NCBI GenBank assembly: GCA_015233375.1
Contig: JADFXW010000002.1
Span: 1 to 44,105, forward strand
Direction of reading: 5' to 3'
Length of the DNA stretch: 44,105 nt
Source of the DNA: Candidatus Omnitrophota bacterium
GTDB taxonomy: Bacteria > Omnitrophota > Gorgyraeia > Zapsychrales > Fredricksoniimonadaceae
Shown one piece after another: positions 1,603 through 24,897 of the stretch. The translations under genes were made by a program, and so were the position numbers. The notes beneath the pieces were generated by a model. That model worked only from the letters and a program-made list of their open reading frames with translations, made no database searches and had not been told where the DNA came from. The stretch's first letter is position 1, and every line of letters begins with the position of its first letter.

Positions 1603-1608
1603 CATGAG

Positions 1609-3269: not shown

Positions 3270-3981
3270 AATGAATTTCGTTTAGAAAATCCGAAAATAA
3301 AATAATTTGCCAGCCCTTTGTATCTCTTAAGGACACAATATAATCAAAAAATTTGACTAATTCCTGACGCCGTTTTTCTGTTGAAAAATGTTTATGATGC
3401 AGCACAATCCCTGTAAAAGGCTTTTGTTGGGCATTTTTTACCAACATACGGACAACATCCATGGCCTTATAGAAAGTCATCTTACCCTGTTTATAAGAAC
3501 TAAACGAAACCTCTGCGGGCAGATTCATCAATTTATAATCGCCGCTAAACCTTCTGGATTTAGCTGAAAAAACCTTAAAACCTTGTTCCTCCACAAGCTT
3601 TAGCGTGTTTTTATCATACCCATGATACGGCGGAACAAAAGCTGGTGTAAAATGATCGCCAAAATCTGCCCTCATCTTTTTAAGGCCTTGGGCCATGTCT
3701 TGGCGTTGAACACTAAGAAGACGCCCTTTGCCAAACTCATATTTCATGTCTTTTGAAACAGAATGATTCGCATGAAGCCAGCCATGCTGGACAATATCCA
3801 GTAATTGCGGCATTTGTTCCTTGGCCTTATTAAGAAATTTAACAAGAGACCTATCCATTTTTCCTGGGATGACGGCATGGATAACTGGGACGTGACGATA
3901 TTGGGCTAAATTAAACAAAAACTTGAATTCTTTATCCAAGGTCCATACATCATCATTACGAATAAAAAGGCGTGCAGTCAT
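3259..3981 (-). CDS. Putative polysaccharide deacetylase-like protein (DUF2334/CE4-like)
   Basis: FIRNDDVW near the N-terminus and VQHGWLHANH resemble the metal-binding Asp and His motifs of deacetylase-fold proteins. The assignment is tentative. Confidence 0.5.
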   Translation of the reverse strand: MTARLFIRNDDVWTLDKEFKFLFNLAQYRHVPVIHAVIPGKMDRSLVKFLNKAKEQMPQLLDIVQHGWLHANHSVSKDMKYEFGKGRLLSVQRQDMAQGLKKMRADFGDHFTPAFVPPYHGYDKNTLKLVEEQGFKVFSAKSRRFSGDYKLMNLPAEVSFSSYKQGKMTFYKAMDVVRMLVKNAQQKPFTGIVLHHKHFSTEKRRQELVKFFDYIVSLRDTKGWQIILFSDFLNEIHYDH

Positions 3982-4009
3982 GATATTATTAAGTATACTA
4001 CTTTTTACT

Positions 4010-9888: not shown

Positions 9889-10915
9889 TTTTTATACAAA
9901 TCTTCACATGCGCACGTTGTAAAAATTTTAAAATATTATTGATGGCCCCGGCATTCAAATAAGCATAGCCCATCATTTTGTTGACCAACTTAAAATGATG
10001 CATCACAAATTCACGATAGGTCAAATAAGGACGGCCGTTATATAACCGCTTATACGCCTCCTGATAAAAAGACAATACTTCCTGTCGTATCTGGCCTGTT
10101 TTAATGTCCCAAATGCTAAACTCCTGGCGTTTATTTTCCGGTAAACATAAAAATGGATCTCCTGCCAACAGATGACCTGGTGGATGAAGGCTTAAATCCA
10201 TGTCTCCTGGACGTATCATTTCCTTGTCTTCTTGTGCATACATCAAAGAGCGTAAATCTTTATTTTTCAAGATAGCTAAATAATTCCGTTTAAAACATGC
10301 TTGGGCATCTTTGTCCCAAGTCATAAAAGCAGCAGGCGTCACATCCATATGAGGAAATCCTAAATCCTTCAAAAATGTTACCCCCTCCCTGATGCGCGAC
10401 GCTTCACGAGGATGCACCGTCATGGTCGTGCCACAGGCAAGATCCGCCTTCATACACTCTTTAATGTTATCAGTTAATCTGTTAAATGTGTCTGGCTTTA
10501 ATCCACGCCTATGCCTTGTCGTGACATCAAAATATCCGTCTATGCCAAATTCAAGGCTTACCTTAAGACTTTTAAGATATTTGATGTCCTTTTTATCAAT
10601 CAACACCCCATTGGTCTGAATATGTAAGGAGGTTTTCTTTAAAAAACGCTTGGCCTTTTCTAAAATTTGATACAGCAGGTCCTTGGCTAAAAATGGTTCT
10701 CCGCCGCTAAGAATTAAAGTGGAAGGTTCTGTTTGGTGATATTTAAATAATGAGAAAAACCTGTTAACAGCTTGGAGTGAAATGTCCTTCAAACCCTTGT
10801 GGCGAAAAAAACAATAATCACAGTGCAGATTGCAGCGCTCTGTCACATAAATCCAGGCATAATGGACTTTAATTCTATTGTTTTCTCGCGTCGATAAAAT
10901 ACCTGATTTTGCCAT
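9878..10915 (-). CDS. Radical SAM protein, anSME-like N-terminus, no obvious SPASM cluster
   Basis: VTERCNLHCDYCFFRH and GGEPFL. Its 5' end overlaps the upstream gene by 41 nt if the only in-frame ATG is used. Confidence 0.8.
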   Translation of the reverse strand: MAKSGILSTRENNRIKVHYAWIYVTERCNLHCDYCFFRHKGLKDISLQAVNRFFSLFKYHQTEPSTLILSGGEPFLAKDLLYQILEKAKRFLKKTSLHIQTNGVLIDKKDIKYLKSLKVSLEFGIDGYFDVTTRHRRGLKPDTFNRLTDNIKECMKADLACGTTMTVHPREASRIREGVTFLKDLGFPHMDVTPAAFMTWDKDAQACFKRNYLAILKNKDLRSLMYAQEDKEMIRPGDMDLSLHPPGHLLAGDPFLCLPENKRQEFSIWDIKTGQIRQEVLSFYQEAYKRLYNGRPYLTYREFVMHHFKLVNKMMGYAYLNAGAINNILKFLQRAHVKICIKNDQ

Positions 10916-12053
10916 TCAATGTCCGAGGGATTGCCCCTTCATGTTTTCTGATTTCAATACAACGATCTAGGCCGATTTTTTGAACCACCACATCCTTCAA
11001 AACCCTTAAATCTTTAGCCTGAAGTTTAACAATATTAATGAAAAGTTTATCATAATACCGTTGAGGGTCCTTATCAATCACAAAAAAGAAGCTGGGGTGC
11101 TTGAGGACATCATTCACCGTACGGATTAATTCCTGTTTTAAAACAACAACTCCATTGATAAGCAAGCTTTCCTGTATGCGACCTTGCACCTTAATCCATA
11201 AACCTTCTTTGTCCCTCTTGAGTTGGACGCGGTCTCCTAAACGATACCTGATAAAAGGCATGCACGTATTATTCAAATCCGTGACCAATAAATCCCCTTG
11301 ACCACTCTCTGATGCTAATTCATTATCGAGAACCTCCAACAAAAGCCCATCCGCCACCACCTTCATATATTCATCATGAGGCGCAAGCGCACACGCCAAA
11401 CCTGAAATCTCCATGGCCCCGTAGTGGTCATGAACACGTACGCCCCCCAAACATTCAATCCTTTGACGGTAATCTGGCCATAAAGGCTCTCCATTAACCA
11501 AACAGCGTTGAATAGAATGTTTTTTCCCTAATAGCGCAAAAAGGTCAAAAAGCTGATTGGTATACGCATTAACCAGGGTTGGTTTAAAAGTCTTGATAAG
11601 AAACACAGCTTCTTGTAATTTCTCAGCCGTGCTCACAGGTCCCAACGGTATCACCCCTGCACCTGCGGCCTTGAAAGCACTTTCCATAAGACGACCACCG
11701 CTGTTTAGATCATAGGAACATAGGTTTAAGCATAAAGCCCCCTCTTTAACGCCAAATAAACGATAAATCTTGACCAAACGGCTCAAATGAGCTTCATACG
11801 CTTGTCTTGAATGGGCAATCAGCAGCCTGGATGATGTTGAGCCAGAGGTTGCTGTCAGATTAAAAACCGTATCCGCAAAACCTGTCTTTAGAAAATCCTT
11901 CATCTGTTCTCTTGAAGTGACCGGGACACGCTTAAAATCATCCCAAGAGCGAAGATGGACCTTCCAACGCTTATCTTTCTTGGAAAAAAAATTAAATAGT
12001 TGATTTACTTTCTTTAATGCTTGGGGAGTAAACATATATTTGTCCATCAGCAA
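10875..12053 (-). CDS. PaaK/CapK/F390-synthetase-like adenylate-forming enzyme
   Basis: LTATSGSTSSRLL is the P-loop-like AMP-binding motif. The length and overall pattern fit the COG1541-type family. The start is uncertain (ATGs at 12053, 12047 and 12035); all three overlap the 3' end of 11992..13563. Confidence 0.7.
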   Translation of the reverse strand: MLMDKYMFTPQALKKVNQLFNFFSKKDKRWKVHLRSWDDFKRVPVTSREQMKDFLKTGFADTVFNLTATSGSTSSRLLIAHSRQAYEAHLSRLVKIYRLFGVKEGALCLNLCSYDLNSGGRLMESAFKAAGAGVIPLGPVSTAEKLQEAVFLIKTFKPTLVNAYTNQLFDLFALLGKKHSIQRCLVNGEPLWPDYRQRIECLGGVRVHDHYGAMEISGLACALAPHDEYMKVVADGLLLEVLDNELASESGQGDLLVTDLNNTCMPFIRYRLGDRVQLKRDKEGLWIKVQGRIQESLLINGVVVLKQELIRTVNDVLKHPSFFFVIDKDPQRYYDKLFINIVKLQAKDLRVLKDVVVQKIGLDRCIEIRKHEGAIPRTLNGKIRYFIDARKQ

Positions 12054-13563
12054 CTTTAACCAGCATTTTTAATGGGATTTCTTTTTTTAATTCTTCTTCA
12101 CTCACCATTCCAGGCATCTTAAATTTCATTAACCCATACACTAAAACGGCCCTTTGACGGGACAAAGCCTCCTTCATTTGCTTTATTTGATCATTATACG
12201 CTAAATTGGGCCTTAAAGATAACGGGTCTTTTTGATAAGCTAAAGGCAGCGCTCGACGTCCTGTTAAAAAATACAGGGCCATAAAATTGTTTGAATAAAT
12301 CAGAGTGTCTGCAGAAATCTTTTTTACCTCGCTTATAATAGCGGATTTGTCCCATTCCCTTCTATCAAACGCCACCCCTTCGTTATACCTTACAACTCCC
12401 CACGCTAATGCTCCTGGCAGATTTAAACCAATCACATAGGTCATCAAAAGAATGGCAAACGTGCTTTTTAGCAAACGAGAGGATCTGGTCACTGAAAACA
12501 ACAAATGCACGCACAAAAGACAAAAAAATAATTCAAAAACCTCCACAGGAAGAAAATATCTCCCCCTTTTAGCTAAACTATCCAAAAAACCAACAACAAT
12601 GCCCCATGACACAAAATAAAAGAATATAAAAAAAACTATTATCGTTATGAATCTCATTGTTGAGTTGGGGACACCCTTCAGGGCCCAAGAGTCTCTATTT
12701 CTAAAAATCATCCATCCTAATAAAACCATCCCCAGCATCAATACTAAGACAAGATCAGTCTCCCCAGTTGAGAGATGATTAATCAGCCCTGGATATCCTT
12801 TCATCCCTAAAATGGACAACGGATGAAAAGAAATCATCCGATCAGTCCAATGACCTGAATGTAAGAAATTCACAACGCCCCATAAGGTCAGTGGAAGTAA
12901 ACTTAAACACCCAAACGCAACCGCCCAAATACGTGATTTCAGCCAATCCTTTTGAAAAAACAAAAGCAATGCCCCTGTCAAAACCAACGGTATCCCCGCA
13001 AATCGGGTCAAACAGGCCAATCCAGCAGCCATTGAACAGAAGCCAAAAGATATCCTGCTTTTTGTTTCCATAAAATCTGTTATAAAAAACAACCAAAGAA
13101 GCGTTAAAAAAATAAACAAAGGTTCTGTCATGGCCATTGAGTAGGAATACAAATTGTCAATCCTCACCAGCATCCATGATACCCCTATCATTGAGAGCCA
13201 GAAATTCTTCGTATACCTATAAAGCAAAATACCAACCAAACAGATATTCATTCCAAAGAAAAAGGCATTGAGCCAGCGTGCGGTGTACAAAGGATCTGGG
13301 CCTCCCAGCCAATGAATCAAGGCCATTATTATGGGGAACAATGGTGGATAATGCTGCCATAAAGAAACACCTTGGGACGGCCAACCAAATAAATCCAAAC
13401 CACTTAAACACCTCGCCATATAAATATAAAAAACCCCATCACCCTCAACCCCTACCCCTCTTTTAGATGTCATCCATATAATGAGGACAAAACCAGCACA
13501 ACCAACTAAAAGAAAGGCGAGAATGCGCAGCCAACACTTTATCTTTTGTTCATCGGGTGTCAT
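11992..13563 (-). CDS. GT-C-fold (ArnT/PMT-like) polytopic membrane glycosyltransferase, paralog of 6171..7712
   Basis: 523 aa with the same architecture and shared motifs as 6171..7712. Carries the post-TM1 acidic/aromatic motif GDGVFYIYMARCLSGLD. Confidence 0.7.
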   Translation of the reverse strand: MTPDEQKIKCWLRILAFLLVGCAGFVLIIWMTSKRGVGVEGDGVFYIYMARCLSGLDLFGWPSQGVSLWQHYPPLFPIIMALIHWLGGPDPLYTARWLNAFFFGMNICLVGILLYRYTKNFWLSMIGVSWMLVRIDNLYSYSMAMTEPLFIFLTLLWLFFITDFMETKSRISFGFCSMAAGLACLTRFAGIPLVLTGALLLFFQKDWLKSRIWAVAFGCLSLLPLTLWGVVNFLHSGHWTDRMISFHPLSILGMKGYPGLINHLSTGETDLVLVLMLGMVLLGWMIFRNRDSWALKGVPNSTMRFITIIVFFIFFYFVSWGIVVGFLDSLAKRGRYFLPVEVFELFFCLLCVHLLFSVTRSSRLLKSTFAILLMTYVIGLNLPGALAWGVVRYNEGVAFDRREWDKSAIISEVKKISADTLIYSNNFMALYFLTGRRALPLAYQKDPLSLRPNLAYNDQIKQMKEALSRQRAVLVYGLMKFKMPGMVSEEELKKEIPLKMLVKVADGQIYVYSPSIKESKSTI

Positions 13564-13564
13564 A

Positions 13565-14596
13565 TTAATTATTCACAAAAATCTTTTCTAAAACCTCATT
13601 CTTCAAGTGCATGGCATCATAAAAATCATCTTGTGTAAAACCTCCCAACGCTGGATCATAAGAACCAACGATCTTTACACCTAATCTTTGACCAAGCTTT
13701 CGATAATAATTCTCAATTTTGATGATATCCATCCTTTTAGGCCATGGCGAGTCAAGAAGCCATTGATATTGTTTCGGATGAAACGGCAAAAGACAAAACG
13801 TCACCTGTTCATGATGGACTTTCATATATAATATGAATTTTTCCAGTGTGTTTTCCAAATTTTGATCTGTTTTCAGACCCCATGCCATTTGAGCCTGTTT
13901 CATATAATTCGGTGTCTTGATATCCCTGTCTTTAGAATTCATTGATGATACTTTTTGCCAAAGGCATCTGCCATCATGTAATAATAAGCATAAACCCTTG
14001 GGGACCTTTGTCTGGGTATCTCGTAATTTCTTTACTGATTCTTGAAAATAACTAAAGGAAAAAACATTCAACCATACAGGTGATAATACTGGCGGCTTTA
14101 TGGGCCCTGCTCTTTGCCCTAATCTTTGTAACATATCATCAACATCTTCTTTAACAGTCAACCACTTAGAATGATATAACGGCAAGGTAATCAACTGCGG
14201 ACTTAACAAAATAATCACGCGTTTAGGATACCAACCCCTTTTGACATACCCATCAAAAATGCCAAGATAATCAGGCAATGCCGCATTGGTGATCGAATTA
14301 TTTATAATCCTTTGTCCAGGAAATACATTGTCCCCTAACCCCATGATTTGGCTGGATCCAAGAACCAAGATATCTGGAATAGCCGTCAAATCCTCGATGA
14401 AATATTTCTGTAAAAGATTTTCATCCAGACCTTTAAAAATTTGGATATCTTGGCCTGAGGCTAAGGTTTTGGCTATGCCATATTCTTCCTGTTGACTTTT
14501 ATCCTTTTGACAATCATATAGGCCTTGAGGGTCAACTGAGATATTCACAAAAGCCACTAACAATAATATAGGTAAAAAAAAGAGAATTTTTACCAT
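13565..14596 (-). CDS. DltD/AlgJ-like SGNH-fold extracytoplasmic acyl-transfer protein
   Basis: N-terminal signal anchor MVKILFFLPILLLVAFV. LVLGSSQIMG (compare the DltD GSSE Ser motif), ILLSPQL, and C-terminal FYDAMHL (D-x-x-H). Sits directly downstream of an MBOAT gene. Confidence 0.6.
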   Translation of the reverse strand: MVKILFFLPILLLVAFVNISVDPQGLYDCQKDKSQQEEYGIAKTLASGQDIQIFKGLDENLLQKYFIEDLTAIPDILVLGSSQIMGLGDNVFPGQRIINNSITNAALPDYLGIFDGYVKRGWYPKRVIILLSPQLITLPLYHSKWLTVKEDVDDMLQRLGQRAGPIKPPVLSPVWLNVFSFSYFQESVKKLRDTQTKVPKGLCLLLHDGRCLWQKVSSMNSKDRDIKTPNYMKQAQMAWGLKTDQNLENTLEKFILYMKVHHEQVTFCLLPFHPKQYQWLLDSPWPKRMDIIKIENYYRKLGQRLGVKIVGSYDPALGGFTQDDFYDAMHLKNEVLEKIFVNN

Positions 14597-14617: not shown

Positions 14618-16072
14618 CTAAAATTGAAAATAAAGAAACCTGTTTTGTCCATAACAACCCCAAAAGACCATTGCTAAAACTAATCCGTAATAATAAGTCC
14701 AGCGCACCCATGCTGGGCTTTTGGCAAATACAAATTCATCACCTGCATTTTCCTGCAATAAATCCATAATCAAAAGAAATGCGATTAACTCCACTGTCAA
14801 CAACCACCATCTTTGATCAAAACCTGAGAATATTCGCCCTTGATCCCACGCATGCCCCCAGCCCTGAGGCAAACGGCTAATAATATCAAAAGACTCGTCC
14901 AAACTCCTGGCCCTGTAGAAAAACGAGAAAAAACTAAACAAAAAGAAGCATGTCAATACTTGCCATAGTTGAACAAAAATGTTGTTCCTGTCTAAACCAA
15001 TCATTTGATATATTTTTTGCCTGATTTCGCAGGTTCCTCTTGAACAGACCACATATATCCCTAATAATAAAAAAGCAAGAATATAGGTCCAATCTGCACC
15101 ATGCCAAAAACCTGAAAATAAGAACGCCAGAAAAACCGCTATCCAGCGTTTATCACGTAAAAACTGATTTTGGCATAACGGCACATAAACATAGTCCTTG
15201 ACCCAGCTAAAAAAAGTTATATTCCAACGCGTCCAATATTCCGCAATCGATCGAGAAAAGAATGGAAATCTAAAATTATTCGTCAAACGAAACCCCATCG
15301 CCTTGGCGCTCCCAATCGCCATATCACAATAACCAGAAAAATCACAATAAATTTGAAATGCAAAAAGGACAGCCGCTATAACAAAGGCTGGGCCTTGAAA
15401 CTCATGCGGATTATCAAAAACCCTGTCCACCAAGTCTTTGAGGCGGTCTGCAATGACCACCTTCTTAAACATCCCCCAAGCCATTAATTTTAAAGCGTCC
15501 GTTATCCTTTGATAATCCACTTCATGTTTCTGACGAAGTTGAGGAATTAAATGATATGGTCTTTCAATAGGGCCTGCGACCAACTGCGGATAAAACATCA
15601 CATAAAGGGCATAAATACCAAAATGCCGTTCTGCTTTTTGCCTGCCACGGTATACTTCAATGACGTAAGAAAGGCTTTGTAAGGTATGAAAAGAAAGCCC
15701 TATGGGTAAAAGAAAACGGATGAGCTTTAAAGGATACTGCACACCAAAAAAACCTGCCAAAGCCCATATATTTGAACTAAAAAAGTTGAAATATTTAAAT
15801 ATAAACCAAACCACGCAGGTGGCTGCGATGCTCATTATTAAGTATCTTCTCGCATAACGGTTCTTAAGGCGCGCTTGCTCAATCAAAAGCCCCATCGCGT
15901 AATCAATCACAATCAATAGCAATAAAATAAAAATATATTGCGGCACAAACCACATATAAAAAACACAACTGGCCATCAAAAGCAAGGCCCAACGAAAACG
16001 ATGGGGACAAATAAAATAGGAAGCTGTCACAATCGGAAAAAAGATTAAAAAAGAAAAAGAATTAAAAAGCAT
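14618..16072 (-). CDS. MBOAT-family membrane O-acyltransferase (AlgI/DltB-like)
   Basis: 484 aa and polytopic. FSGFWHGADWTY holds the conserved MBOAT His. The overall AlgI/DltB-like pattern is present (YPQLVAGPIERP). Confidence 0.85.
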   Translation of the reverse strand: MLFNSFSFLIFFPIVTASYFICPHRFRWALLLMASCVFYMWFVPQYIFILLLLIVIDYAMGLLIEQARLKNRYARRYLIMSIAATCVVWFIFKYFNFFSSNIWALAGFFGVQYPLKLIRFLLPIGLSFHTLQSLSYVIEVYRGRQKAERHFGIYALYVMFYPQLVAGPIERPYHLIPQLRQKHEVDYQRITDALKLMAWGMFKKVVIADRLKDLVDRVFDNPHEFQGPAFVIAAVLFAFQIYCDFSGYCDMAIGSAKAMGFRLTNNFRFPFFSRSIAEYWTRWNITFFSWVKDYVYVPLCQNQFLRDKRWIAVFLAFLFSGFWHGADWTYILAFLLLGIYVVCSRGTCEIRQKIYQMIGLDRNNIFVQLWQVLTCFFLFSFFSFFYRARSLDESFDIISRLPQGWGHAWDQGRIFSGFDQRWWLLTVELIAFLLIMDLLQENAGDEFVFAKSPAWVRWTYYYGLVLAMVFWGCYGQNRFLYFQF

Positions 16073-16143
16073 TTAAACTCCATAATAGATACCCCGCCTT
16101 AACAAACATGGTTCTGATTATCTTTTAATTCACGCATGGCGTG

Positions 16144-16323
16144 TTTATAGACACATTGAAAGTTCTTTTAGAAACATTAAGGGATTTTTCGCCAAAAGTC
16201 GTCAAGGTTTTGCGCCCATTGTTTTCTAAAGCATCCTTAGTATATTTGGAAAACAATGGGCGCAAACCGTAGACGACGGCGAAAATATCCCGTTTCTAAA
16301 AGAACTTTCAATGTGTCTATAAA
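16144..16323. repeat. Long palindromic intergenic element E1 (subfamily I)
   Basis: TTTATAGACACATTGAAAGTTCTTTTAGAAAC...loop CTAAAGCATCCTTAGTATATTTGG...GTTTCTAAAAGAACTTTCAATGTGTCTATAAA. The outer and innermost stems are perfect; the mid-stem has conserved bulges. Homologous to E2 (33979..34160). Confidence 0.9.
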
Positions 16324-16331
16324 CCTCGCTC

Positions 16332-17255
16332 TCATCCACGCCTTGACAGACGTGGAATTCTCGCTTTGTTAAAACTACGTAAAACCATATCAAGCGCTGG
16401 TGTCTTTACGCCTATCTTGTGCGCTTCCTTCACTATAGCTTGTGTTATATAATCAATTTCTGTCGGACGACAGGCTTTTATATCTTGAAATAATGTCCCT
16501 CGATGAAGGATCCCTTTGAGATCCCCATGACGGACCCTCATTATCAGCTTCATAGGATCAAAACCAAGCTTTATCCCTAACGCTCTGGCTGTAGCCTTTC
16601 CTTCTTTGACGGCATCCTGGACTAATTTCCAAATATTCTTGTCCTTGGCTAAAATATCATATCCTTGATTCGTGATAACCGGCAAAGGGTTCATCACTGA
16701 GCTAAAAATAAGTTTTGCCCATACCACGCGGTCAGCCGCCCGGAAGACCTTACAGGGCATTTGGCATTGTTTAAAAATTCTTCCCACCATGGGGGCCCCA
16801 TCACCCCCAAGATACATCTGCCCTTGATAAAAAACATCCACTTCACCTGGGGCTTTTTCTTGGCACGCCATCGTGGTGGTGCCTCGGCAAATCAGCGCTT
16901 TTTTAAACAATTTTCCTGCCCAAGAGATATCAAACAAACCATTTTGAAGGAACAAAACACATCCAGGATTAAGAAATGCCACATCCTGAAGAGCTTTTCT
17001 AAAATCCATTATTTTGGTTGCTATAATCAGGACATCAACATCCAACCCTTGTAATTGGCTGATAGACTCAACAGAGTAGATTTGTGCCTTTCTTGACTGT
17101 CCCTTTTCTTTTAAAATGATCCTATTATTCTTAAGCGCTTTTCTTATAAAAAGGTTCTTGTCAAACACAGTCACATGCACCCTTCTAGACAAAAGAGCAG
17201 CCAAACTTTTTCCCAACGCCCCTTGACCAATCACAATAATCCTAAACATCCTCAT
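16332..17255 (-). CDS. 2-dehydropantoate 2-reductase (PanE/ApbA)-family NAD(P)-dependent oxidoreductase
   Basis: N-terminal Rossmann motif IIVIGQGALGKSLAALL. The C-terminal CRPTEIDYITQAIVKEAHKIGVKTP is typical of the ApbA C-domain. The last 13 codons lie inside repeat-module sequence. Confidence 0.75.
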   Translation of the reverse strand: MRMFRIIVIGQGALGKSLAALLSRRVHVTVFDKNLFIRKALKNNRIILKEKGQSRKAQIYSVESISQLQGLDVDVLIIATKIMDFRKALQDVAFLNPGCVLFLQNGLFDISWAGKLFKKALICRGTTTMACQEKAPGEVDVFYQGQMYLGGDGAPMVGRIFKQCQMPCKVFRAADRVVWAKLIFSSVMNPLPVITNQGYDILAKDKNIWKLVQDAVKEGKATARALGIKLGFDPMKLIMRVRHGDLKGILHRGTLFQDIKACRPTEIDYITQAIVKEAHKIGVKTPALDMVLRSFNKARIPRLSRRG

Positions 17256-18411
17256 AATAAATCAACCCCTCATCCTCAAAAAAACTTTTCTTGGTAAACC
17301 GCCCTTGCTTTAAGCCCTGTTGATAAAACGCCGTACCAGGCAATATCACAAGCTTATTGGTCCTCACCGTCACTCCAGACCCCATCTTTTGAAGGACTGA
17401 TAAGGTCTTATCCCTGTCCTTTTTTGTCTCCCCAGGATTTCCGTTTGTCATCATCACCTCAACATGAAGCCTTGCCTCTTTAGCCCAACGCACGGCATTT
17501 AATATTTCTTCAGACCCATATTTCTTTCCCAATTTCTTTAAAACACGCACTGAAGCAGATTCCACCCCAAAAGAAACAGCCCTGCAATGAGAATGGGCCA
17601 TCAATAAAAGCAGTTTTCTGCTGACCGAATCCACACACAACGAACATTCCCAAATAAAGCTCCCATTAATTTTCCGTAACCCTTCGCAAAGCTCAACTAA
17701 ACGCTTCTTGTCCCAGGCCAAATCTTCATCAAGAAACCTAACCCTTTGAGCATGATGGATTTCAACTAATTCCTTAATCTCATCTAATACATGAACAATA
17801 CTTCTGGCCCTTACCCCTTGCCCCCAAAGCACATGACGGTCACAAAAAACACAGTGATGCCTGCATCCTCTTGACGTCATGATAGAGACCGGACGATGCC
17901 CTTGTTTGTATAAGCAGGTCCCGATGGGTGGGATATCATCTAAATCCTTAAAAACACGCCTTGAGGTCTCGACCATTGTGTTTTCTTTTAAATAACATAT
18001 ATTCGGCACCTTGGGGCATACGCCTTTATGAAGCAGCATAGGCAGCACAAATTCAGGATCAGATAAAACAACAACATCTGCTAATTGACGCAACAAAATC
18101 TCCTCTTTAAACACAGAGGCAAACGGACCAAAAACAATGATACAAGACGGAGGATTCTTCCTCTGACGCATCTTGTGCATATGAGCAAAGACATTGGACT
18201 TGTTTCCAAAAAAGAGGGCATAACAACAAACATCCGTTTTCAACTTCTTGGCATGGACGCGAGGCATCTCTTTCCTCGGTAAAAAATCCACCATCCTTGC
18301 ATCAAATCCATTTTTAAGAAGTGATAGAAAAACACCTGCGGCACTGTAACGCATAAGCCCTGAGCCGCCGCATTCTGGACGAGTGTTATCTAAAAGAATG
18401 ACCTCAATCAA
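17242..18411 (-). CDS. B12-binding-domain (class B) radical SAM protein
   Basis: TSRGCRHHCVFCDRH carries CX3CX2C after an N-terminal flavodoxin-like region of about 170 aa (IIVFGPFAS..), as in cobalamin-dependent radical SAM enzymes. Confidence 0.8.
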   Translation of the reverse strand: MIEVILLDNTRPECGGSGLMRYSAAGVFLSLLKNGFDARMVDFLPRKEMPRVHAKKLKTDVCCYALFFGNKSNVFAHMHKMRQRKNPPSCIIVFGPFASVFKEEILLRQLADVVVLSDPEFVLPMLLHKGVCPKVPNICYLKENTMVETSRRVFKDLDDIPPIGTCLYKQGHRPVSIMTSRGCRHHCVFCDRHVLWGQGVRARSIVHVLDEIKELVEIHHAQRVRFLDEDLAWDKKRLVELCEGLRKINGSFIWECSLCVDSVSRKLLLLMAHSHCRAVSFGVESASVRVLKKLGKKYGSEEILNAVRWAKEARLHVEVMMTNGNPGETKKDRDKTLSVLQKMGSGVTVRTNKLVILPGTAFYQQGLKQGRFTKKSFFEDEGLIYYEDV

Positions 18412-18415
18412 TGTC

Positions 18416-19840
18416 TTATGCCCCTACTCTATAGTAAAGTGTTGTTAACCAATTATTGGCGTAGGCTTCAAGCCAAGATTGGCGTTTACTGTAATCACAC
18501 CGAGGGTCATATTGGCTAATAAAACGCTTCCGAAGCCGCCGTAAAAAATCCGGCTTAAACAAAACCCTTGAAAGAACAACATATTCACGGACGCGTTCAA
18601 ATTCCCATGGACCAGTAAATTTCCATACACTTTTTGAACAAGCAATCAGGCCTTGTTTCTTTAAATATTCCAAACCTTCCTGACAATGGTCAAGTACGCC
18701 CATGCCAAAACGTTTCAAGAAACCTTGAGATTTAAGCCCCTCGGTTATCATCGCCATGGCCGCGAAATGAGACATCACGTAAGTCTTATCTTCTGGACAG
18801 GCGTCAACGCCTGAGAAATCAGACATGGAGTCAAGGCCACGTGTCCGATAAAAAATGGATCCTGGAAACTGCCCCATAACCAAGGGGCCAAAACCAACCA
18901 CTGCTGCTTCCATACGCGTATACAATTCTTCCTGATATTCTTCTCCTTCACTATCAAGGGCATAGCTGCCAAGCCCTTTGCGTTTAAAACCAGCTTTCTG
19001 AAGAATAGCTATTGCTGTTTTTATAATAGCGTCCCGTCTCTTAATAAAATCCAAAACCTCTTCTGATGGAGCACATAATGCTTTAAGATTTTTTCCGCAA
19101 TAAGGATAAACATGGACGATATTAACTCCTTCATCAAGAAGCATTTTAAGGTCTTTCTTAATCCCTTGGACCGTCTGATACGGCAAGCCAGCGATAAGAT
19201 CTGCATTCACATGAGGCACCCCAGCCTTCAGGGCAGAACGCACACACCAAAGCACTTGTTTTTTAGTCTGAAAGCGTGCCACTTGTTTGATAATCTTTTC
19301 ATCAAGAGACTGAACCCCAATACTCAAACGAAATAATCCTCGCTTCACCAACACATCCAGTTTAGCTTGACTTAAAGAAGAAGGATTTGCTTCAAAAAGA
19401 ATTTTACGCTCCCTTACAGGAAAATTCTTATCCAACGCATCTAAAACAGTATCTAACTGGCTTTCATCAAGAATGGATGGCGTCCCCCCTCCAAAACAAA
19501 GGGTGGACGTATCCATGCCTTTTAAAACAGGAGAAAAGAATTTCATCTGATTCTTTAAGGAAGTGATATAGGCATCAATGTCCAAAGGCTGTTTCAATAC
19601 ACGCCTTGCACAATAACAAAACGCGCATGAGTTCTCACAAAACGGGACATGGACATACAAATGGGCCTTGGCAATAGATTGGACAAAAACATCATTTTCT
19701 CGTGAATTGTTAATAGATCGAGCGACATCCTCCCACTTCGAAGAAGTTGCCAATACCCCAATCAGAGAATCTTCGCTTGTCAAAGGCTTGATCTCGTTTA
19801 AAAAAAATAAAAAATTGCGCAAGTCTTTATCGTTAGACAT
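18416..19840 (-). CDS. HemN-like (class C) radical SAM protein
   Basis: HVPFCENSCAFCYC and CFGGGTPSIL. The ORF track extends to 19891. I prefer the ATG at 19840 (MSNDKDLRNFLFFLNEI), which aligns with the paralog start MNHNSSDSEKKNFLFFLNKV and removes the 37-nt overlap. Confidence 0.8.
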   Translation of the reverse strand: MSNDKDLRNFLFFLNEIKPLTSEDSLIGVLATSSKWEDVARSINNSRENDVFVQSIAKAHLYVHVPFCENSCAFCYCARRVLKQPLDIDAYITSLKNQMKFFSPVLKGMDTSTLCFGGGTPSILDESQLDTVLDALDKNFPVRERKILFEANPSSLSQAKLDVLVKRGLFRLSIGVQSLDEKIIKQVARFQTKKQVLWCVRSALKAGVPHVNADLIAGLPYQTVQGIKKDLKMLLDEGVNIVHVYPYCGKNLKALCAPSEEVLDFIKRRDAIIKTAIAILQKAGFKRKGLGSYALDSEGEEYQEELYTRMEAAVVGFGPLVMGQFPGSIFYRTRGLDSMSDFSGVDACPEDKTYVMSHFAAMAMITEGLKSQGFLKRFGMGVLDHCQEGLEYLKKQGLIACSKSVWKFTGPWEFERVREYVVLSRVLFKPDFLRRLRKRFISQYDPRCDYSKRQSWLEAYANNWLTTLYYRVGA

Positions 19841-19854
19841 CTTTCTTAGCCTCT

Positions 19855-21288
19855 TTACACCCCCATTTGATAATACAATGCCATCAGCCAATGATTCGAA
19901 AAAGAATGAAGCAGGGTCTTCCCTTTCCTGTAATCCGTCCCTGGATTATATTGCTTAGCATAACGCTTTTGAAGCTTTAATAAAAAATCTTCACCATATA
20001 AAACCCGAGAAAGAGCGATATACTCCCGAAGGTGTTCTATCTCCCAAGAGGCTGAAAACTTCCACACTCCTTTGAAAGAGCCCACTAAACCTAAAGATTT
20101 AAGATAATTTAAGCCCCCTTTGCATGCCTGTTTCAAAGAAACCCCAAATCTATTTAAAAAAACTTTTTCATCAAGACCGTCCGTAATGATTGCCATTATC
20201 GCATAACGAGCCATCACGAAACTTAAATCTTGTGGACAAGCCTCAAGGCTGTTAAAACCATTATCTTGACCTGAAGGCTTGGTCCTGTAAAAGAGGGCGC
20301 CAGGAAATTGGCCTATAGAATACGCCCCAAAACCAAGCACCGCTGATTCAAGACGTGTATACGCTTCTTCCTGATGATCTTCTCCGGCTTGATTCAGGGC
20401 ATAAGCACCTAGCCCTTTGCGTTTAAACCCGGAAGCTTTCAAAACCTTTGCGGCTTCATGCATCATGTCTGAACGTCTTTTAAAGAAATCAACAAACGTC
20501 TCTTGAGGACCACACAATTCATTGACAGGTAAACTGCTAAAGGGATGAACATGAACAATGTTAGCCCCTTCTTGAACAACTTTCTTAATATCCTCCAGAA
20601 GCCCTTGGATGCTCTGGCCTGGTAACCCGGACATCAAATCCACATTCACATAAGGAACGCCCGCAGCTCTGGCTACATATAAAGATGATAAAACTTTTTG
20701 CCTGGTCTGTGAACGAGCCACCTGTTTTAAGACGCAAGCCTCTAGCGACTCAACCCCCATACTCAAACGATAAAGTCCCCTATCCAATAAAAGGTCCAGT
20801 TTTGACCTTGTCCAAGAAGAAGGGTGTGTCTCAAAAAAGATTTTACGCCTCTGGACAGGATATGCGGCATCAGCCGCATCAAGAAGGAAGGTTATTTGTT
20901 TTTCATCCAAGAGAGACGGGGTCCCTCCACCAAAACAGATGTGAGATGCATCCATTCCCTCACAAGCCTTGGATTGACGTTCCATCTGGCGTGCAACGGC
21001 GTGAATATAAAGATCCAAATCCCTCTTGCTTTTAAGTAATCCTCGGGCACAATGGCAAAACTTACACAATCTCTCGCAAAAAGGCACGTGCACATATAAT
21101 TGCAGCTTCTTAATGGATGAAACAAAAGAAGAGGTTCGTCTTGCCTTTTGAAGCAGACCTGCCAGGCTACTCCATCTGGCAGGCCGCGTCAAAGCGCCAA
21201 TCACAGGGTCCTCAATGCTGGGCGGATGAACCTTATTAAGGAAAAATAAGAAGTTCTTTTTTTCTGAGTCTGATGAATTGTGATTCAT
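19855..21288 (-). CDS. HemN-like (class C) radical SAM protein, paralog of 18416..19840
   Basis: HVPFCERLCKFCHC and CFGGGTPSLL. Colinear similarity with the downstream paralog along the whole length. Confidence 0.8.
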   Translation of the reverse strand: MNHNSSDSEKKNFLFFLNKVHPPSIEDPVIGALTRPARWSSLAGLLQKARRTSSFVSSIKKLQLYVHVPFCERLCKFCHCARGLLKSKRDLDLYIHAVARQMERQSKACEGMDASHICFGGGTPSLLDEKQITFLLDAADAAYPVQRRKIFFETHPSSWTRSKLDLLLDRGLYRLSMGVESLEACVLKQVARSQTRQKVLSSLYVARAAGVPYVNVDLMSGLPGQSIQGLLEDIKKVVQEGANIVHVHPFSSLPVNELCGPQETFVDFFKRRSDMMHEAAKVLKASGFKRKGLGAYALNQAGEDHQEEAYTRLESAVLGFGAYSIGQFPGALFYRTKPSGQDNGFNSLEACPQDLSFVMARYAIMAIITDGLDEKVFLNRFGVSLKQACKGGLNYLKSLGLVGSFKGVWKFSASWEIEHLREYIALSRVLYGEDFLLKLQKRYAKQYNPGTDYRKGKTLLHSFSNHWLMALYYQMGV

Positions 21289-22436
21289 TTTTGCCTTGAA
21301 AAACTCAAATAAAATTTCCCTTTAAGCAGTCCTTTCTTTTGATAAAGCATAAACAAATCTTTTTTCAGCAACGCCTGGTTACCCGGACACTTAGGGAATA
21401 TTTGCGAGGCTTCTGTTAATCGATTATCCTGATACTCGACGAAATCAACATTATCAAAAAACCTCGCTAAATGAAGACACTTCTTAAAATCTTCCATCGT
21501 TTCTGTCGGGAAATTAATAATAAAGTGAGACTCCAGGCGGATCTTGGAATTATAAGCTTTAATCTCTTTGATGGTCTTCATCATCAATGAAAGAGAATAG
21601 GAACGTTTCATCAGTTTCAGGATTCGACTCGATCCACTTTGCAATGGAGTCAATAAATACGTGATTCTTTTATCCAAAATATGTTTCTTTAAAAAAGGAT
21701 AATATTTTAAGAATAAAGACGGATAAAAATTAAATAACCCTATCTTAATCCTTTTATCAATCCTCAAGATTTCATCCACCAACTCCACAATATTGGCGCC
21801 ACTATCATGCCCCCAACAACCGCAATCATCCGCAATCAACATCACCTCAAAACTTTTTTCTTTAATAAATCTCTTAATATCTTCAAGGATGTCCTTTTGA
21901 CAGCGGCTTTGAAGGGCTCCTTTCGCAATTTTAATATTACAATACGAACATTTATTCAAACAACCTTGCGCTATCAACAAAGGCCTTAAAGCCTTTTTCC
22001 CTACATAAGAAACAGTACACATTGAAGCTGAAACATCCTCTATCCTGACCCTATAATCAAAATAATCCGAAAATTGATGAATAGACCCAGGAGGGATTAA
22101 AATATGCCCGCTTTTTCTGATATCTTCAGACACCTTGCATAAACACCCAAACACAATCACCTTCTTTGGAGCTTTTACGAATTGATTAATATAGTTGTTA
22201 TTGATTTTGGCAAAGGCATCCGTAATGCCACAGGTATTAAAAATAAGGATATCTGCATGACTCGGACGTTTTACAACCGTATAATCATTCAATTTCAAAA
22301 ACAATGCGATTTTCTGAAAAAGCAGTGAACTCGACGCACACGACATCAGTCCACTGGCAGATACAGCATCCAATAAACAGACCCTCTGTGAGGCATCAAA
22401 TTTTCTCACGGATACCACCTTTAAGCGATGAGTCAT
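21285..22436 (-). CDS. MiaB/RimO-like methylthiotransferase-family radical SAM protein (no evident TRAM domain)
   Basis: N-terminal UPF0004-like Cys positions (RVCLLD, FNTCGITD, FGCLCK). Radical SAM motif AQGCLNKCSYCNIK. Paralog of the C-terminal half of 22396..24897. Confidence 0.7.
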   Translation of the reverse strand: MTHRLKVVSVRKFDASQRVCLLDAVSASGLMSCASSSLLFQKIALFLKLNDYTVVKRPSHADILIFNTCGITDAFAKINNNYINQFVKAPKKVIVFGCLCKVSEDIRKSGHILIPPGSIHQFSDYFDYRVRIEDVSASMCTVSYVGKKALRPLLIAQGCLNKCSYCNIKIAKGALQSRCQKDILEDIKRFIKEKSFEVMLIADDCGCWGHDSGANIVELVDEILRIDKRIKIGLFNFYPSLFLKYYPFLKKHILDKRITYLLTPLQSGSSRILKLMKRSYSLSLMMKTIKEIKAYNSKIRLESHFIINFPTETMEDFKKCLHLARFFDNVDFVEYQDNRLTEASQIFPKCPGNQALLKKDLFMLYQKKGLLKGKFYLSFSRQK

Positions 22437-24897
22437 TCAATACAAATTCTCCCTTAACCAGCCCCTTTTTCTTTGCAAATTCAAATATCCTTTTTTTTGC
22501 CTCCAGCTCCTCCAAAGAACACTTGGGTCGTATGCGACACGCTGGTGTTTGGGCATTTTCTCCGTACTCAATAAAGTTAGCATAATCAAAATACTTTGCT
22601 AAACCCAAGCTCTTTTTAAAGTCACTAGCTGTTTCTGTTGGGAAGTTGACCATAAAATGCGTGTATAACTGAATACCTGGATTGAGGCGTTTTATTTCTT
22701 GGACCTTGTCCATCATGGACGAAAGATTATAGGCTCGATTCATCAGTTTAAGTATCCTGAAAGAGGCGCTTTGTAAAGGAAGCAGCAAATACGTAATCCT
22801 TTTTTTCGCAATATGCTTTTTGAGACTTGAGTAATATTTTAAAAACAGGCTTGGATACATATTATAAATTTTTATCGTAATCTTTTCATGAGCTTTGAGA
22901 ATATTATCAATCAGATCAACAATATTCAAACCATTCTCATGCCCCCAACTTCCGCAATCCTCGGCAATCAGAAATATCTCATAACTTTTATCCTTAATAA
23001 ACAACTTGACCTCATGAAGAATCTCTTCAAGAGCCCGGCTTTTGACATCCCCTTTGGCGATCTTAATATTGCAATATGAGCATTTGTTGACGCAACCTTG
23101 GGCAATGACCAGGGGTCTGGCAGAAGCAAACGCCTGCGACGAAGGTATTTCTTTAATGCTTATCGTGTTTTCAAAATAATCAGAAAACTTATCAATTTCT
23201 GTTGAACCAATTAATAAGCACCCGCTCTTTTGGACCTCTGGTGATATCTTGCCCAAACAACCAAAAATAATCATCGTCTTTTGGGCTTTGGCGTATCTTT
23301 TGATAAAATCAAGATTGGTTTGGGCCCAGGCATCTGTCAAGCCGCAGGTATTAAAAAGAACAATATCCGCCTCCGGTACAGATTCCACCAGTCTATAACC
23401 ATTTAGCTTAAAAAATAATTTAATCCGTTCAAAAAATACAGAGCTTGAAAAACAATACCTCTTGTCATTAGCATATAATATGTCTAATAAACAAATTTTC
23501 TGCTGACGGTTAAACTGGCCCTGAATCTTTTTGGGAGTCATCCGTAATGCGTGTGTTTTGTTTGTTTTATAATAGTCTGGATCTTTAATGATACGACAGT
23601 ATCCCTGGATACGTTTGGCAGGCATCGACTGAGTATAAATAGGAAAATCGGGGCCGTTGTCTTTAAGCCAATAAGCCTCATCAAACCCCTCTTTAATCGC
23701 TTGATAATAAAGCTTGCCGCCTGGCATGATTTGCAAAGGCCTGACATGAAGTTTTATTTCCGGACGTAATTGCTTACGGAAAGAATACGTTTGGGCGACT
23801 GTTGAAGCGTCTTCACCAGGGAATCCAATTATCAAATTAGCATCAGCCTCAATAGCACTTTCGATGGTCAAATTAAGGTTTTTAACAGCAATCTCTGGTG
23901 AAAAATTCCGGCCTATGGCAGGCAATAGATGGCGGCAAAAGGAATCGACCCCATAATAAATCCTGCGGCAGCCCGCAGCCCTCATCGCTTGAAGCACTTC
24001 TTTGTCCACCAGATCAACCCTTGTCGATGTGGTCCACTCCAAAAAAGGAGATTCTTTCCTTAAAATATCACAAAATTCAAAGACCCGCTTTTTGTTAATA
24101 GTAAAATTGGTATCACAAAAAAAGACCTGCCTTGGACCAAAGAATCTATAAAGTTTGTGAACATACTCCAAGGCCTGTTTCGGACTTCTTTGAATGACTC
24201 GGCGTTCATCCTGGGCCATGCGGCTACAAAATAGACATCTATAAACGCAACCCCTGGCTGTTTCAACAGGAAGAGCGGAGATCATCGTATCCTTTGATTT
24301 CCAGGCTGGCAGGCCATCAATAAAAAAATCCTTAAAATCAAAAACCAAATCCCTATTCAGATCATCCTCAAGCAGACGCTGTGGGTTTTGATAAATGCGG
24401 TTTTTCTTATCCCGCCAGGTCAAACCACGAACAGAACTCATGGGGCTTTGATGAATGATGTTATTGATAACTTCTAAAAATGCACCCTCTGCGTACCCTC
24501 TCATGATCATGTCCACATCAGGATAATGCTTCATGATCTGAGTATCAAGAAAGGTGGCATGAGGCCCACCTAACACAACCTTGATTCCTGGGCTAACCTT
24601 CTTAACAATTTGAGCCAGCTCAAAACAGGCAAACCGGCTTTGAGTAAAACAGGTGATCCCAACAATATCCGGAACATAGGTACGGATAATTTCTTCAATT
24701 TTCTCAAGGGTATGATCTGGTTGATAATAAATATGGACAGGGCTCTGATACTCTAACCGAATCGCATTAGCTAAGGCAAAAACACCCAGAGGAAACCACT
24801 CCTCACGGCCAGATGTGCCAAACAAATCCTCGCCACCCAAATGCGGGTAAGGAGGAGAAAAAAATAAAACACGTAAACCCTTGTTAGCCTTTGACAC
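22396..24897 (-). CDS. Fusion protein: B12-binding radical SAM domain (N) plus MiaB-like radical SAM domain (C)
   Basis: 833 aa. The N-terminal half has VVLGGPHATF and ETARGCVYRCLFCSRM. The C-terminal half has FNTCGLTDAW, FGCLGK and AQGCVNKCSYCNIK. GTG start at 24895-24897, preceded by TAAGGAG. Confidence 0.8.
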   Translation of the reverse strand: MSKANKGLRVLFFSPPYPHLGGEDLFGTSGREEWFPLGVFALANAIRLEYQSPVHIYYQPDHTLEKIEEIIRTYVPDIVGITCFTQSRFACFELAQIVKKVSPGIKVVLGGPHATFLDTQIMKHYPDVDMIMRGYAEGAFLEVINNIIHQSPMSSVRGLTWRDKKNRIYQNPQRLLEDDLNRDLVFDFKDFFIDGLPAWKSKDTMISALPVETARGCVYRCLFCSRMAQDERRVIQRSPKQALEYVHKLYRFFGPRQVFFCDTNFTINKKRVFEFCDILRKESPFLEWTTSTRVDLVDKEVLQAMRAAGCRRIYYGVDSFCRHLLPAIGRNFSPEIAVKNLNLTIESAIEADANLIIGFPGEDASTVAQTYSFRKQLRPEIKLHVRPLQIMPGGKLYYQAIKEGFDEAYWLKDNGPDFPIYTQSMPAKRIQGYCRIIKDPDYYKTNKTHALRMTPKKIQGQFNRQQKICLLDILYANDKRYCFSSSVFFERIKLFFKLNGYRLVESVPEADIVLFNTCGLTDAWAQTNLDFIKRYAKAQKTMIIFGCLGKISPEVQKSGCLLIGSTEIDKFSDYFENTISIKEIPSSQAFASARPLVIAQGCVNKCSYCNIKIAKGDVKSRALEEILHEVKLFIKDKSYEIFLIAEDCGSWGHENGLNIVDLIDNILKAHEKITIKIYNMYPSLFLKYYSSLKKHIAKKRITYLLLPLQSASFRILKLMNRAYNLSSMMDKVQEIKRLNPGIQLYTHFMVNFPTETASDFKKSLGLAKYFDYANFIEYGENAQTPACRIRPKCSLEELEAKKRIFEFAKKKGLVKGEFVLNDSSLKGGIREKI

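Follow-up and report, generated by a model that had tools for sequence, protein, structure and literature searches.

The stretch of DNA analysed here (the window) is the entire 44,105-bp contig of a metagenome-assembled genome of the phylum Omnitrophota, and the subject of this report is a cluster of radical-SAM (rSAM) genes that opens with a tightly packed block of six. In a scan for open reading frames (ORFs), six consecutive minus-strand ORFs fill positions 16332–24897, confirming the coordinates of an earlier reading made from the letters alone (the sequence-only reading), which had described six co-directional genes whose junctions overlap or are at most 14 nt wide. With the longest ORFs, the genes overlap by 41, 4, 37 and 14 nt, with one 4-nt gap. 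The junctions also match with the deposited starts, which shorten P0121 to 374 aa and P0241 to 474 aa; the start of the 383-aa ORF lies nine codons further in in the public deposit. Because no junction exceeds 14 nt, there is, as that reading had held, no space for a precursor-peptide gene within the block, whose members are as follows.

22396–24897, minus strand: 833-aa two-module protein, a class-B B12-binding rSAM followed by a TRAM-less MiaB-like module (Pfam, PDB)
21285–22436, minus strand: TRAM-less MiaB-like protein of 383 aa with UPF0004 and rSAM domains (Pfam, NCBIfam)
19855–21288, minus strand: HemN-like class C rSAM protein, copy 1, 477 aa, with FCERLCKFC and GGGTPS (Pfam, NCBIfam)
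18416–19891, minus strand: HemN-like class C rSAM protein, copy 2, 491 aa, with FCENSCAFC and GGGTPS (Pfam, NCBIfam, PDB)
17242–18411, minus strand: rSAM protein of 389 aa with a degenerate B12-like N-terminal domain and GCRHHCVFC (Pfam, NCBIfam, PDB)
16332–17255, minus strand: NAD(P)H-dependent reductase of the ApbA/PanE fold, 307 aa (Pfam ApbA and ApbA_C)

All motifs quoted before were found in the translations, namely six CX3CX2C motifs (GCVYRCLFC, GCVNKCSYC, GCLNKCSYC, FCERLCKFC, FCENSCAFC and GCRHHCVFC) from three rSAM classes, and GGGTPS twice. Profile searches with Pfam and NCBIfam placed the motifs in the rSAM classes to which they had been assigned, and Pfam, NCBIfam and PDB together upheld all three classes (domain negatives for the window refer throughout to a Pfam scan of 34 of its ORFs). 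The public annotation calls the window's rSAM proteins just 'radical SAM protein', and in the profile comparison none of the six block proteins reaches the curated cutoff of any NCBIfam model.

The block does not stand alone. The sequence-only reading had seen an operon of six genes closed by the reductase; these six instead form the front of a ~23-kb cluster of roughly 19 genes that runs from 24897 to 1610, and the window as a whole encodes nine rSAM proteins with ten rSAM domains. Nor is the combination peculiar to this locus, since at least 10 others share a conserved core, with the MiaB-like, second HemN-like and ApbA genes as variable accessories. We take the locus for an rSAM tailoring cluster that recurs in a poorly known phylum, known from uncultured genomes, and it is less singular than had been thought.

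The 833-aa protein matches B12-binding (PF02310, 67.1 bits against a threshold of 32.1), Radical_SAM in two stretches and UPF0004 in Pfam. Its N-terminal half carries GCVYRCLFC and is 57–65% identical to stand-alone proteins of 454–458 aa in the fetched loci L001, L089, L098 and L101; its C-terminal half (UPF0004 plus rSAM) carries GCVNKCSYC and is 52% identical to the 383-aa MiaB-like protein. In PDB the two halves match TokK/AprD4 and MiaB/RimO, respectively. Both MiaB-like modules match UPF0004 (PF00919) at 36–38 bits against a gathering score of 27 and the rSAM domain (PF04055) above threshold, with the motifs GCLNKCSYC and GCVNKCSYC. The auxiliary-cluster cysteines C33, C69 and C98 of the 383-aa protein are conserved together with its rSAM cysteines C159, C163 and C166; in an alignment the former coincide with cysteines of canonical MiaB, RimO and MtaB, and they are invariant or at least 90% conserved across 74 relatives.

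A TRAM domain (PF01938 or PF18693) was not matched by Pfam in either window module, and in the alignment the proteins end ~60–70 residues short of canonical MtaB, RimO and MiaB. The modules miss the TIGR00089 subfamily cutoff (194.9 and 180.7 bits against 251), and no equivalog cutoff is reached either. For the MiaB-like protein, ~10 relatives came out of a word-indexed search, whereas 1.84 billion representatives searched exhaustively with HMMER yielded 343 matches at E < 1e-30, many of them full-length at 350–400 aa. Sampling the subfamily, which comprises at least 74 clusters at 50% identity, gave Radical_SAM in 74 of 74, UPF0004 in 73 of 74 and TRAM in 0 of 74 members. Pfam, the alignment and the relatives thus agree with the earlier observation that these proteins lack TRAM.

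The known contexts of the MiaB-like relatives are rSAM-dense clusters, with at least nine rSAMs in L003 and seven in L006, the latter including an rSAM-B12-rSAM fusion. In L008 a B12-rSAM gene lies immediately 5′ of the MiaB-like gene, and the 1005-aa protein P0361 has the order B12-binding, rSAM, UPF0004, rSAM, an architecture identical to that of the window fusion. The coupling of a B12-rSAM to a TRAM-less MiaB-like module is therefore recurrent: the window and the distant P0361 have the two as a fusion, and L008 has them side by side. The idea that the fusion is unique was overturned by the exhaustive search. One further B12-rSAM candidate, P0005 in L002, was set aside since its neighbourhood is unrelated. 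The search also brought up multi-rSAM fusions of 680–1900 aa that contain a TRAM-less MiaB-like module (P0303, P0309, P0315, P0316, P0325, P0341, P0354, P0361 and P0411), among them giant proteins with MurB_C, two UPF0004 and two rSAM domains or with four rSAM stretches in 1260 aa. Beside the MiaB-like relatives in L003 and L006/L007 lie HxsD-domain genes, HxsB/C-like rSAM genes and ORFs of 63–91 aa.

The two halves of the window fusion meet at 'HALR|MTPKK' (23500–23600, minus strand), and the second half opens with 'MT..' as does its stand-alone paralog. The DNA at this junction, 'cggATGAct', holds an ATGA start/stop overlap in another frame directly after the A-rich tract ataaaacaaacaaaacacac. 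Given this overlap and tract, a single 1-nt indel separates the fusion from two overlapping genes, and the window fusion, judged from its junction, may be either a recent real fusion or an assembly error.

Pfam finds only Radical_SAM in the two HemN-like proteins, with no match to HemN_C in either, and their best NCBIfam and PDB matches fall in the HemN family. The copies are 49% identical to each other. Copy 2 aligns over ~240–260 aa with HemN (1olt) and NocN (9p2u), and the HemN-like match to 1olt covers residues 76–312 at E = 1e-28. NCBIfam scores remain below cutoff for STM4012 (152–154 bits against 380), HemN (127–137 against 325) and ChuW/HutW (113–131 against 400). Within a database of 5.8 billion proteins, these proteins form a clade of ~45 clusters that are 46–60% identical among themselves, the next relatives following at 31%; a conserved stretch near the N terminus, 'RNFLFFLN', and a distinctive 190 aa at the C terminus set the clade apart, and the few members bearing organism names (six rows) are all labelled Omnitrophica/Omnitrophota. 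One member, P0246, has a precomputed match to HemN_C (PF06969). A GTDB genome scan with the full-length HemN-like alignment was discarded: it responded to the generic 'LYVHVPFC', the matches listed were ordinary HemN/HemW genes at no more than 39% identity, and the scan loci L009, L018, L054 and L069 proved unrelated when examined.

The next gene had been described as a B12-domain rSAM protein. Its rSAM domain is upheld; the 389-aa product matches B12-binding at 16.2 bits, under the Pfam threshold of 32.1, so its binding of cobalamin is uncertain. In PDB it matches AprD4 and 9ccb, and it is 44–61% identical to the gene that follows the HemN-like gene in L001, L089, L093–L099 and L101. The reductase matches ApbA (64.2 bits) and ApbA_C (79.3 bits), both over the gathering scores; it narrowly misses the generic PanE subfamily TIGR00745 (134.9 against 141.35) and lies well under the cutoff of every NCBIfam equivalog model. 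Pantothenate genes were not found among the 34 window ORFs. Orthologs of the reductase occur in L089, L095 and L098, with none in L101.

Recurrence was followed in two long collinear contigs, L089 (GCA_015233675.1) and L101 (GCA_041643075.1), and in shorter views of the core from eight JGI metagenome contigs and L001. In L089 and L101 the genes run in the order PNPOx-fold protein, B12-rSAM, HemN-like protein, B12-like rSAM, AMP-ligase, two rSAMs, DegT aminotransferase and rSAM; L101 continues with GT28, DUF2334 and rSAM-SPASM genes, before which the fetched part of L089 stops. Compared with the window, their products are similar as follows.

B12-rSAM, L089 and L101, compared with the N-terminal half of the fusion: 61–65% identity
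HemN-like protein, L089 and L101: 55–59% identity
B12-like rSAM, L089 and L101: 56–61% identity
AMP-ligase, L089 and L101: 69% identity
Two rSAMs, L089 and L101: 58–64% identity
DegT aminotransferase, L089 and L101: 67–71% identity
Third rSAM, after DegT, L089 and L101: 57–59% identity
GT28 glycosyltransferase, opposite strand, L101 only: 68% identity
DUF2334 protein, L101 only: 56% identity
rSAM-SPASM, L101 only: 64% identity

Overall, the cluster recurs in other Omnitrophota contigs at 55–71% identity, and we take it to be specific to that phylum. The HemN-like gene is followed by the B12-like rSAM gene in all 10 of the informative loci; 5′ of the HemN-like gene stands a separate B12-rSAM gene in six loci and a MiaB-like gene in one (L096). 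The ApbA reductase gene comes directly after the B12-like rSAM gene in L095 and L098, two genes later in L089, and is absent from L101; L098 also has a second HemN-like copy. L091 and L100 hold the downstream half, where its neighbours are genes for GT2, PMT_2, an epimerase and a UDP-sugar dehydrogenase. The core accordingly consists of B12-rSAM, HemN-like protein and B12-like rSAM, and the variable additions are the two MiaB-like modules, the second HemN-like gene, the reductase and the MBOAT block described below. Relative to L101, the window has gained the two MiaB-like modules, the second HemN-like gene, the reductase, the block of MBOAT, unassigned protein and nine-transmembrane (9-TM) protein, and a second 9-TM paralog, and it has lost one rSAM and the PNPOx gene; the PNPOx-fold gene precedes the core in L001, L089 and L101 and has no counterpart among the 34 window ORFs.

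At 4503–6739 in L089, between the B12-like rSAM and ApbA genes, lie genes for a 282-aa weakly methyltransferase/DUF3419-like protein and a 463-aa rSAM, neither of which has a counterpart in the window; these two extra genes make the position before ApbA a variable slot. A 90-aa ORF in L001 was considered as a carrier or precursor protein and rejected, being featureless and having no window counterpart. The upstream part of L101, adjoining the syntenic cluster, holds HxsD-domain genes, HxsB/C-like rSAM genes and ORFs of 63–91 aa.

The core stays linked to further rSAMs and to the adenylating enzyme, DegT, the MurG-like GT28 and the deacetylase-like protein. In other Omnitrophota contigs, too, the rSAM genes adjoin those for the AMP-ligase, DegT, GT28 and DUF2334, which strengthens the tie to flanking glycan and acyl-transfer genes that had been proposed. 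Asked of the neighbourhoods of the fetched loci, the question of recurrence has a divided answer: the core recurs, but the six-gene set varies, with the MiaB-like gene seen only in L096. The sequence-only reading consequently survives in its enzyme classes, the missing TRAM, the missing precursor and the glycan link, and gives way on the six-gene unit and its singularity.

Four further same-strand rSAM genes lie downstream of the block, three of the Fer4_12 type and one with SPASM, all conserved in the syntenic loci at 55–64% identity. The remainder of the cluster and the features around it are listed here.

14618–16072, minus strand: MBOAT (DltB/AlgI-like) membrane O-acyltransferase, a window-specific insertion
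13565–14596, minus strand: 343-aa protein, family unassigned, paired by position with the MBOAT and bearing a single hydrophobic segment at its N terminus
11992–13563, minus strand: 9-TM membrane protein with a weak PMT/GT-C-like match
10875–12053, minus strand: PaaK/F390-synthetase-like adenylate-forming enzyme (69% identity in L089 and L101)
9878–10915, minus strand: rSAM of the Fer4_12 type, ~340 aa (58–59% identity in L089 and L101)
8878–9888, minus strand: rSAM of the Fer4_12 type, ~340 aa (59–64% identity in L001, L089 and L101)
7712–8821, minus strand: DegT/LegC/PseC-type sugar aminotransferase (67–71% identity in L089 and L101)
6171–7712, minus strand: 9-TM membrane protein, paralog of 11992–13563
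5182–6186, minus strand: rSAM of the Fer4_12 type (57–60% identity in L089, L091 and L101)
3923–5200, plus strand: MurG-like GT28 glycosyltransferase, its opposite-strand orientation kept in relatives (68–69% identity in L091 and L101)
3259–3981, minus strand: DUF2334/polysaccharide-deacetylase-like protein (56% identity in L091 and L101)
2139–3269, minus strand: rSAM with SPASM domain (55–64% identity in L091 and L101)
1610–2107, minus strand: DUF6580 small membrane protein with four hydrophobic segments
1505–1637, minus strand: cobalamin riboswitch RF00174 (32.3 bits against a gathering score of 31.5)
1–~1370, minus strand: BtuB-like TonB-dependent receptor (plug domain), running off the left contig end
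25098–36128, plus strand: divergent polysaccharide genes (Pfam)

The last of these encode an AsnB-type amidotransferase, GT4 and GT2 glycosyltransferases, a polysaccharide deacetylase, a FemAB-like GNAT protein, further glycosyltransferases, a methyltransferase and a metallophosphoesterase. The two 9-TM proteins (6171–7712 and 11992–13563) are 48% identical paralogs; no homolog of theirs was detectable in the fetched syntenic loci, though L091 has a 519-aa protein at that position. For the proteins starting at 6171, 13565, 11992, 36366, 39850 and 42386, Pfam at E ≤ 1 gave nothing usable, nor did BLAST against the fetched loci for the same proteins, the MBOAT (14618) and the DUF6580 protein (1610), nor a PDB search for the 9-TM protein at 11992. 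Two small ORFs of 77 and 99 aa lie at 39321–39843 on the plus strand, in a ~600-nt gap between genes for an acyltransferase-3 and a polytopic membrane protein.

What we say about the function of the cluster we infer from genomes. The most likely reading, to which we give about an even chance, is that this Omnitrophota cluster uses radical chemistry without oxygen to tailor a sugar or acyl unit that goes into a surface glycoconjugate. The target, in this strictly anaerobic lineage, would be an amino sugar or else a carboxylic acid with which such a sugar is later acylated. Enzymes of classes B and C would add one-carbon units at carbons that are unactivated or sp2; the MiaB-like modules, which lack TRAM and keep their auxiliary cysteines, would place sulfur or a methylthio group on a substrate other than RNA; and the B12-like rSAM together with the ApbA-fold reductase could perform a radical dehydration or oxidation and then a keto-reduction, for which AprD4/AprD3 offers a precedent. 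The product would be adenylated or attached, glycosyl-transferred and exported, and in the window the inserted MBOAT would also O-acylate it onto a surface glycan or glycolipid. The DegT aminotransferase, adenylating enzyme, GT28, deacetylase-like and polytopic proteins resemble, by analogy, the Arn-type and N-acyl-aminosugar pathways. Some negatives fit a glycoconjugate: acyl carrier protein (ACP), ketosynthase (KS) and FabZ domains are missing from the 34 window ORFs, as is TRAM, and no tRNA or ribosomal genes lie nearby.

The MiaB-like modules deserve a separate and more cautious statement. The MiaB fold inserts sulfur or methylthio groups. Since the modules lack TRAM, score below cutoff, have no tRNA or ribosomal context and are paired with other rSAM domains, their substrate is unlikely to be RNA. 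That the TRAM-less proteins form a new functional class of the methylthiotransferase fold, placing sulfur or a methylthio group in a substrate that is neither RNA nor a ribosomal protein, for instance a sugar, an acyl chain or another small molecule, is a tentative suggestion that we think rather doubtful. If true, the MiaB-like enzymes and the HemN-like/B12-like pair would build a previously unseen, C-methylated and thio-functionalised cell-surface residue.

The polytopic proteins and the glycosyl-transfer genes lend themselves to a second explanation, that the cluster modifies a membrane lipid or its head-group, the rSAMs acting on a lipid-linked sugar or a hydrocarbon chain and the glycosyltransferase, deacetylase-like and aminotransferase genes building the head-group. 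Precedents are the hopanoid side-chain enzymes HpnH/G/O/I/K/J, calditol synthase, the enzymes that modify glycerol dialkyl glycerol tetraethers and the ladderane B12-rSAM; other lipid rSAMs (Mss/Hbs homologs) occur in Omnitrophota, and the cluster itself contains several polytopic membrane proteins and the MBOAT. The combination of glycosyltransferase, deacetylase-like protein, aminotransferase and B12-type rSAM mirrors the logic of the hopanoid cyclitol ethers (reviewed in PMC13459092). There are weak NCBIfam matches to the ladderane-associated B12-rSAM family TIGR04072 (110 bits), HpnJ (86–123 bits) and HpnH (44 bits), but all lie far under their cutoffs (360–578 bits) and are no better than those to unrelated B12-rSAM families. 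Genes for a squalene/hopene cyclase, ACP/KS/FabZ, Tes/Mss or polyprenyl synthesis were not found in the 34 window ORFs or the syntenic loci, and the surrounding genes are typical of polysaccharide loci. We consider a lipid substrate rather improbable.

The only sizeable gap of the cluster, 259 nt between the reductase and MBOAT genes, bears on another possibility, namely that the cluster matures a ribosomal peptide (RiPP) or a pilin or surface protein, the rSAMs methylating, cross-linking or thiolating its side chains. This gap holds a nested palindrome of 182 nt (16143–16324): a perfect 33-nt inverted repeat, its arms 116 nt apart, surrounds another 33-nt repeat whose complementarity is 88%, and folding of the element as RNA gives −110 kcal/mol (z = −18). 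The palindrome is found where the window-specific MBOAT block begins and synteny with L089 and L101 breaks, occurs once in the window and matches nothing in a plasmid collection or in the loci fetched; a MITE-like scar, a terminator and a processing site are candidates for its nature. With the gap so occupied, there is no credible precursor ORF in or beside the six genes, and no small ORF is common to the window, L089 and L101. Several members find their best NCBIfam match among RiPP maturases (ApyD, 160 bits; PapB, 89–101 bits), far under the cutoffs of 340–750 bits. MiaB-like relatives do adjoin HxsD, HxsB/C-like rSAMs and 63–91-aa ORFs, a prepilin peptidase and T2SS-F adjoin the cluster in L101, and RimO is a methylthiotransferase that acts on a protein. 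On the other hand, Pfam does not detect SPASM in three of the four downstream rSAMs, and peptidase, transporter and leader-recognition (RRE) genes were not found among the ORFs scanned, which leaves peptide maturation unlikely.

At the far end of the cluster, just past the DUF6580 gene, the cobalamin riboswitch lies directly 5′ of the BtuB-like receptor ORF. Together they resemble a unit for B12 uptake next to a cluster whose rSAMs include B12-domain members; they fit the cluster's B12 demand and are the sole indirect support for its use of cobalamin. Together with the PNPOx-fold gene before the core in L001, L089 and L101 and the NCBIfam matches to BchE (145 bits), HemN (127–137 bits) and ChuW/HutW (113–131 bits), the riboswitch might also speak for tetrapyrrole or cofactor metabolism, with a porphyrin, corrinoid or quinone as the substrate of the BchE-like and HemN/ChuW-like enzymes. 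Yet all these matches are under their cutoffs (325–481 bits), neither the window ORFs scanned nor the syntenic loci yielded another gene of heme, chlorophyll, corrin or quinone biosynthesis, and the conserved neighbours handle sugars. A housekeeping role also ill fits a HemN-like family of ~45 clusters whose named members are all from Omnitrophica/Omnitrophota, and we regard this explanation as very improbable.

HXS, an HxsD-containing system, is an rSAM-dependent anti-phage system (PMC13128918). That HXS neighbours clusters related to ours, that Omnitrophota carry hypervariable polysaccharide cassettes and that PADLOC reports matches to pVip and PDC-M51A would suit an anti-phage or conflict system, HXS-like or viperin-like, inside a variable surface locus. 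However, the PADLOC matches span the generic rSAM core only, at 20–80 bits, and those to HxsB/C reach 52–66 bits against cutoffs of 268–370. Pfam finds no HxsD in the 34 window ORFs (HxsA was not specifically searched for), and gene order is kept, with biosynthetic sugar genes, at 55–71% identity across distinct Omnitrophota contigs. A defence function appears extremely improbable.

The glycoconjugate reading itself has several observations to contend with. Each of its chemical steps is drawn from superfamily membership, and none of the proteins reaches the curated cutoff for a characterised enzyme. The rSAM clusters that hold MiaB-like relatives contain HxsD and small ORFs and seem aimed at peptides rather than at sugars, and HemN-like members also occur as orphans outside the cluster (L090, P0257). 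For the 9-TM proteins, the GT-C call goes back to a sub-threshold PMT match (21.5 against 22.7 bits), and an AlphaFold2 model from a two-sequence alignment was unusable (mean predicted local distance difference test score 39). Finally, transcription may stop at the 182-nt hairpin that follows the reductase gene, in which case the six genes could be expressed separately from the remaining cluster.

Few rSAM enzymes act on sugars, acyl groups or glycolipids, and each of them (GenK, AprD4, BtrN, calditol synthase, HpnJ) has revealed new chemistry. Here, nine rSAM proteins of at least four architectural types are found in a glycan locus across an uncultured phylum of ultra-small, host-dependent bacteria, and such a number in a conserved glycan locus makes the cluster a concentrated source of candidate new reactions. 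The cluster may also point to an unusual surface structure relevant to host attachment, and a methylthiotransferase-like subfamily that lacks TRAM and is not tied to RNA raises the question of the substrate range of the fold.

How the cluster relates to known systems can be stated for each of its parts. In our searches of the literature on Omnitrophota, rSAM lipid enzymes, HemN-like proteins and rSAM enzymes with glycans we found no description of the cluster and none of a TRAM-less methylthiotransferase; with no NCBIfam equivalog cutoff reached, this agrees with the earlier view that no characterised pathway has this gene set. The MiaB-like modules share with MiaB, MtaB and RimO the UPF0004 domain with its three auxiliary-cluster cysteines, the rSAM CX3CX2C motif and the best PDB and NCBIfam matches, but differ in lacking TRAM, in falling under the TIGR00089 cutoff, in being paired or fused with other rSAM domains and in having no tRNA or ribosomal genes near them. 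At 36–42% identity the same subfamily is found in the likewise rSAM-dense L003, L006 and L008, which however contain no other window orthologs and carry HxsD, O-methyltransferase and PPDK_N-type genes in place of the sugar genes.

With the class C enzymes HemN, HemW, ChuW/HutW, NosN/NocN, TbtI, Jaw5/C10P and MqnK/MenK, the HemN-like proteins have in common the rSAM motif, GGGTPS and homology to the HemN core, whereas they form a clade of their own (at most 31% identity to others), have no HemN_C domain detected by Pfam and miss the curated cutoffs. To class B (TokK, GenK, BchE, HpnJ/P/R, PhpK) and AprD4 the N-terminal half of the fusion is akin in its B12-binding and rSAM domains and its TokK/AprD4 matches, yet the window proteins stay under the equivalog cutoffs, the best being ApyD with 160 against 750 bits. 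The succession of an rSAM and an NAD(P)H reductase in the window is one that we take to recall the AprD4/AprD3 pair of sugar deoxygenation; to our knowledge, AprD3 is not an ApbA-fold enzyme. As for chemistry, one-carbon transfer, cyclopropanation and decarboxylation make up the repertoire of the HemN-like family (PMC10114718), and class B and class C rSAMs are one-carbon-transfer, rearrangement or ring-forming enzymes (PMC10114718, PMC13459092).

Likeness to the Arn pathway, which makes the L-Ara4N modification of lipid A, lies in the clustering of a DegT aminotransferase, a glycosyltransferase, a deacetylase/deformylase-like protein and polytopic GT-C-like proteins. The systems differ in that the window DegT scores 126 against 631 bits with the ArnB model, the 9-TM PMT match is sub-threshold, and ArnA and ArnE/F are missing among the window ORFs scanned; we also know of no radical-SAM enzymes in Arn pathways. 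Judged by homology, then, the proteins all diverge within superfamilies already known, and no named enzyme is among them. Against this background the profiles and alignments delimit two new subfamilies well, the Omnitrophota HemN-like/B12-like pair and the TRAM-less MiaB-like clade.

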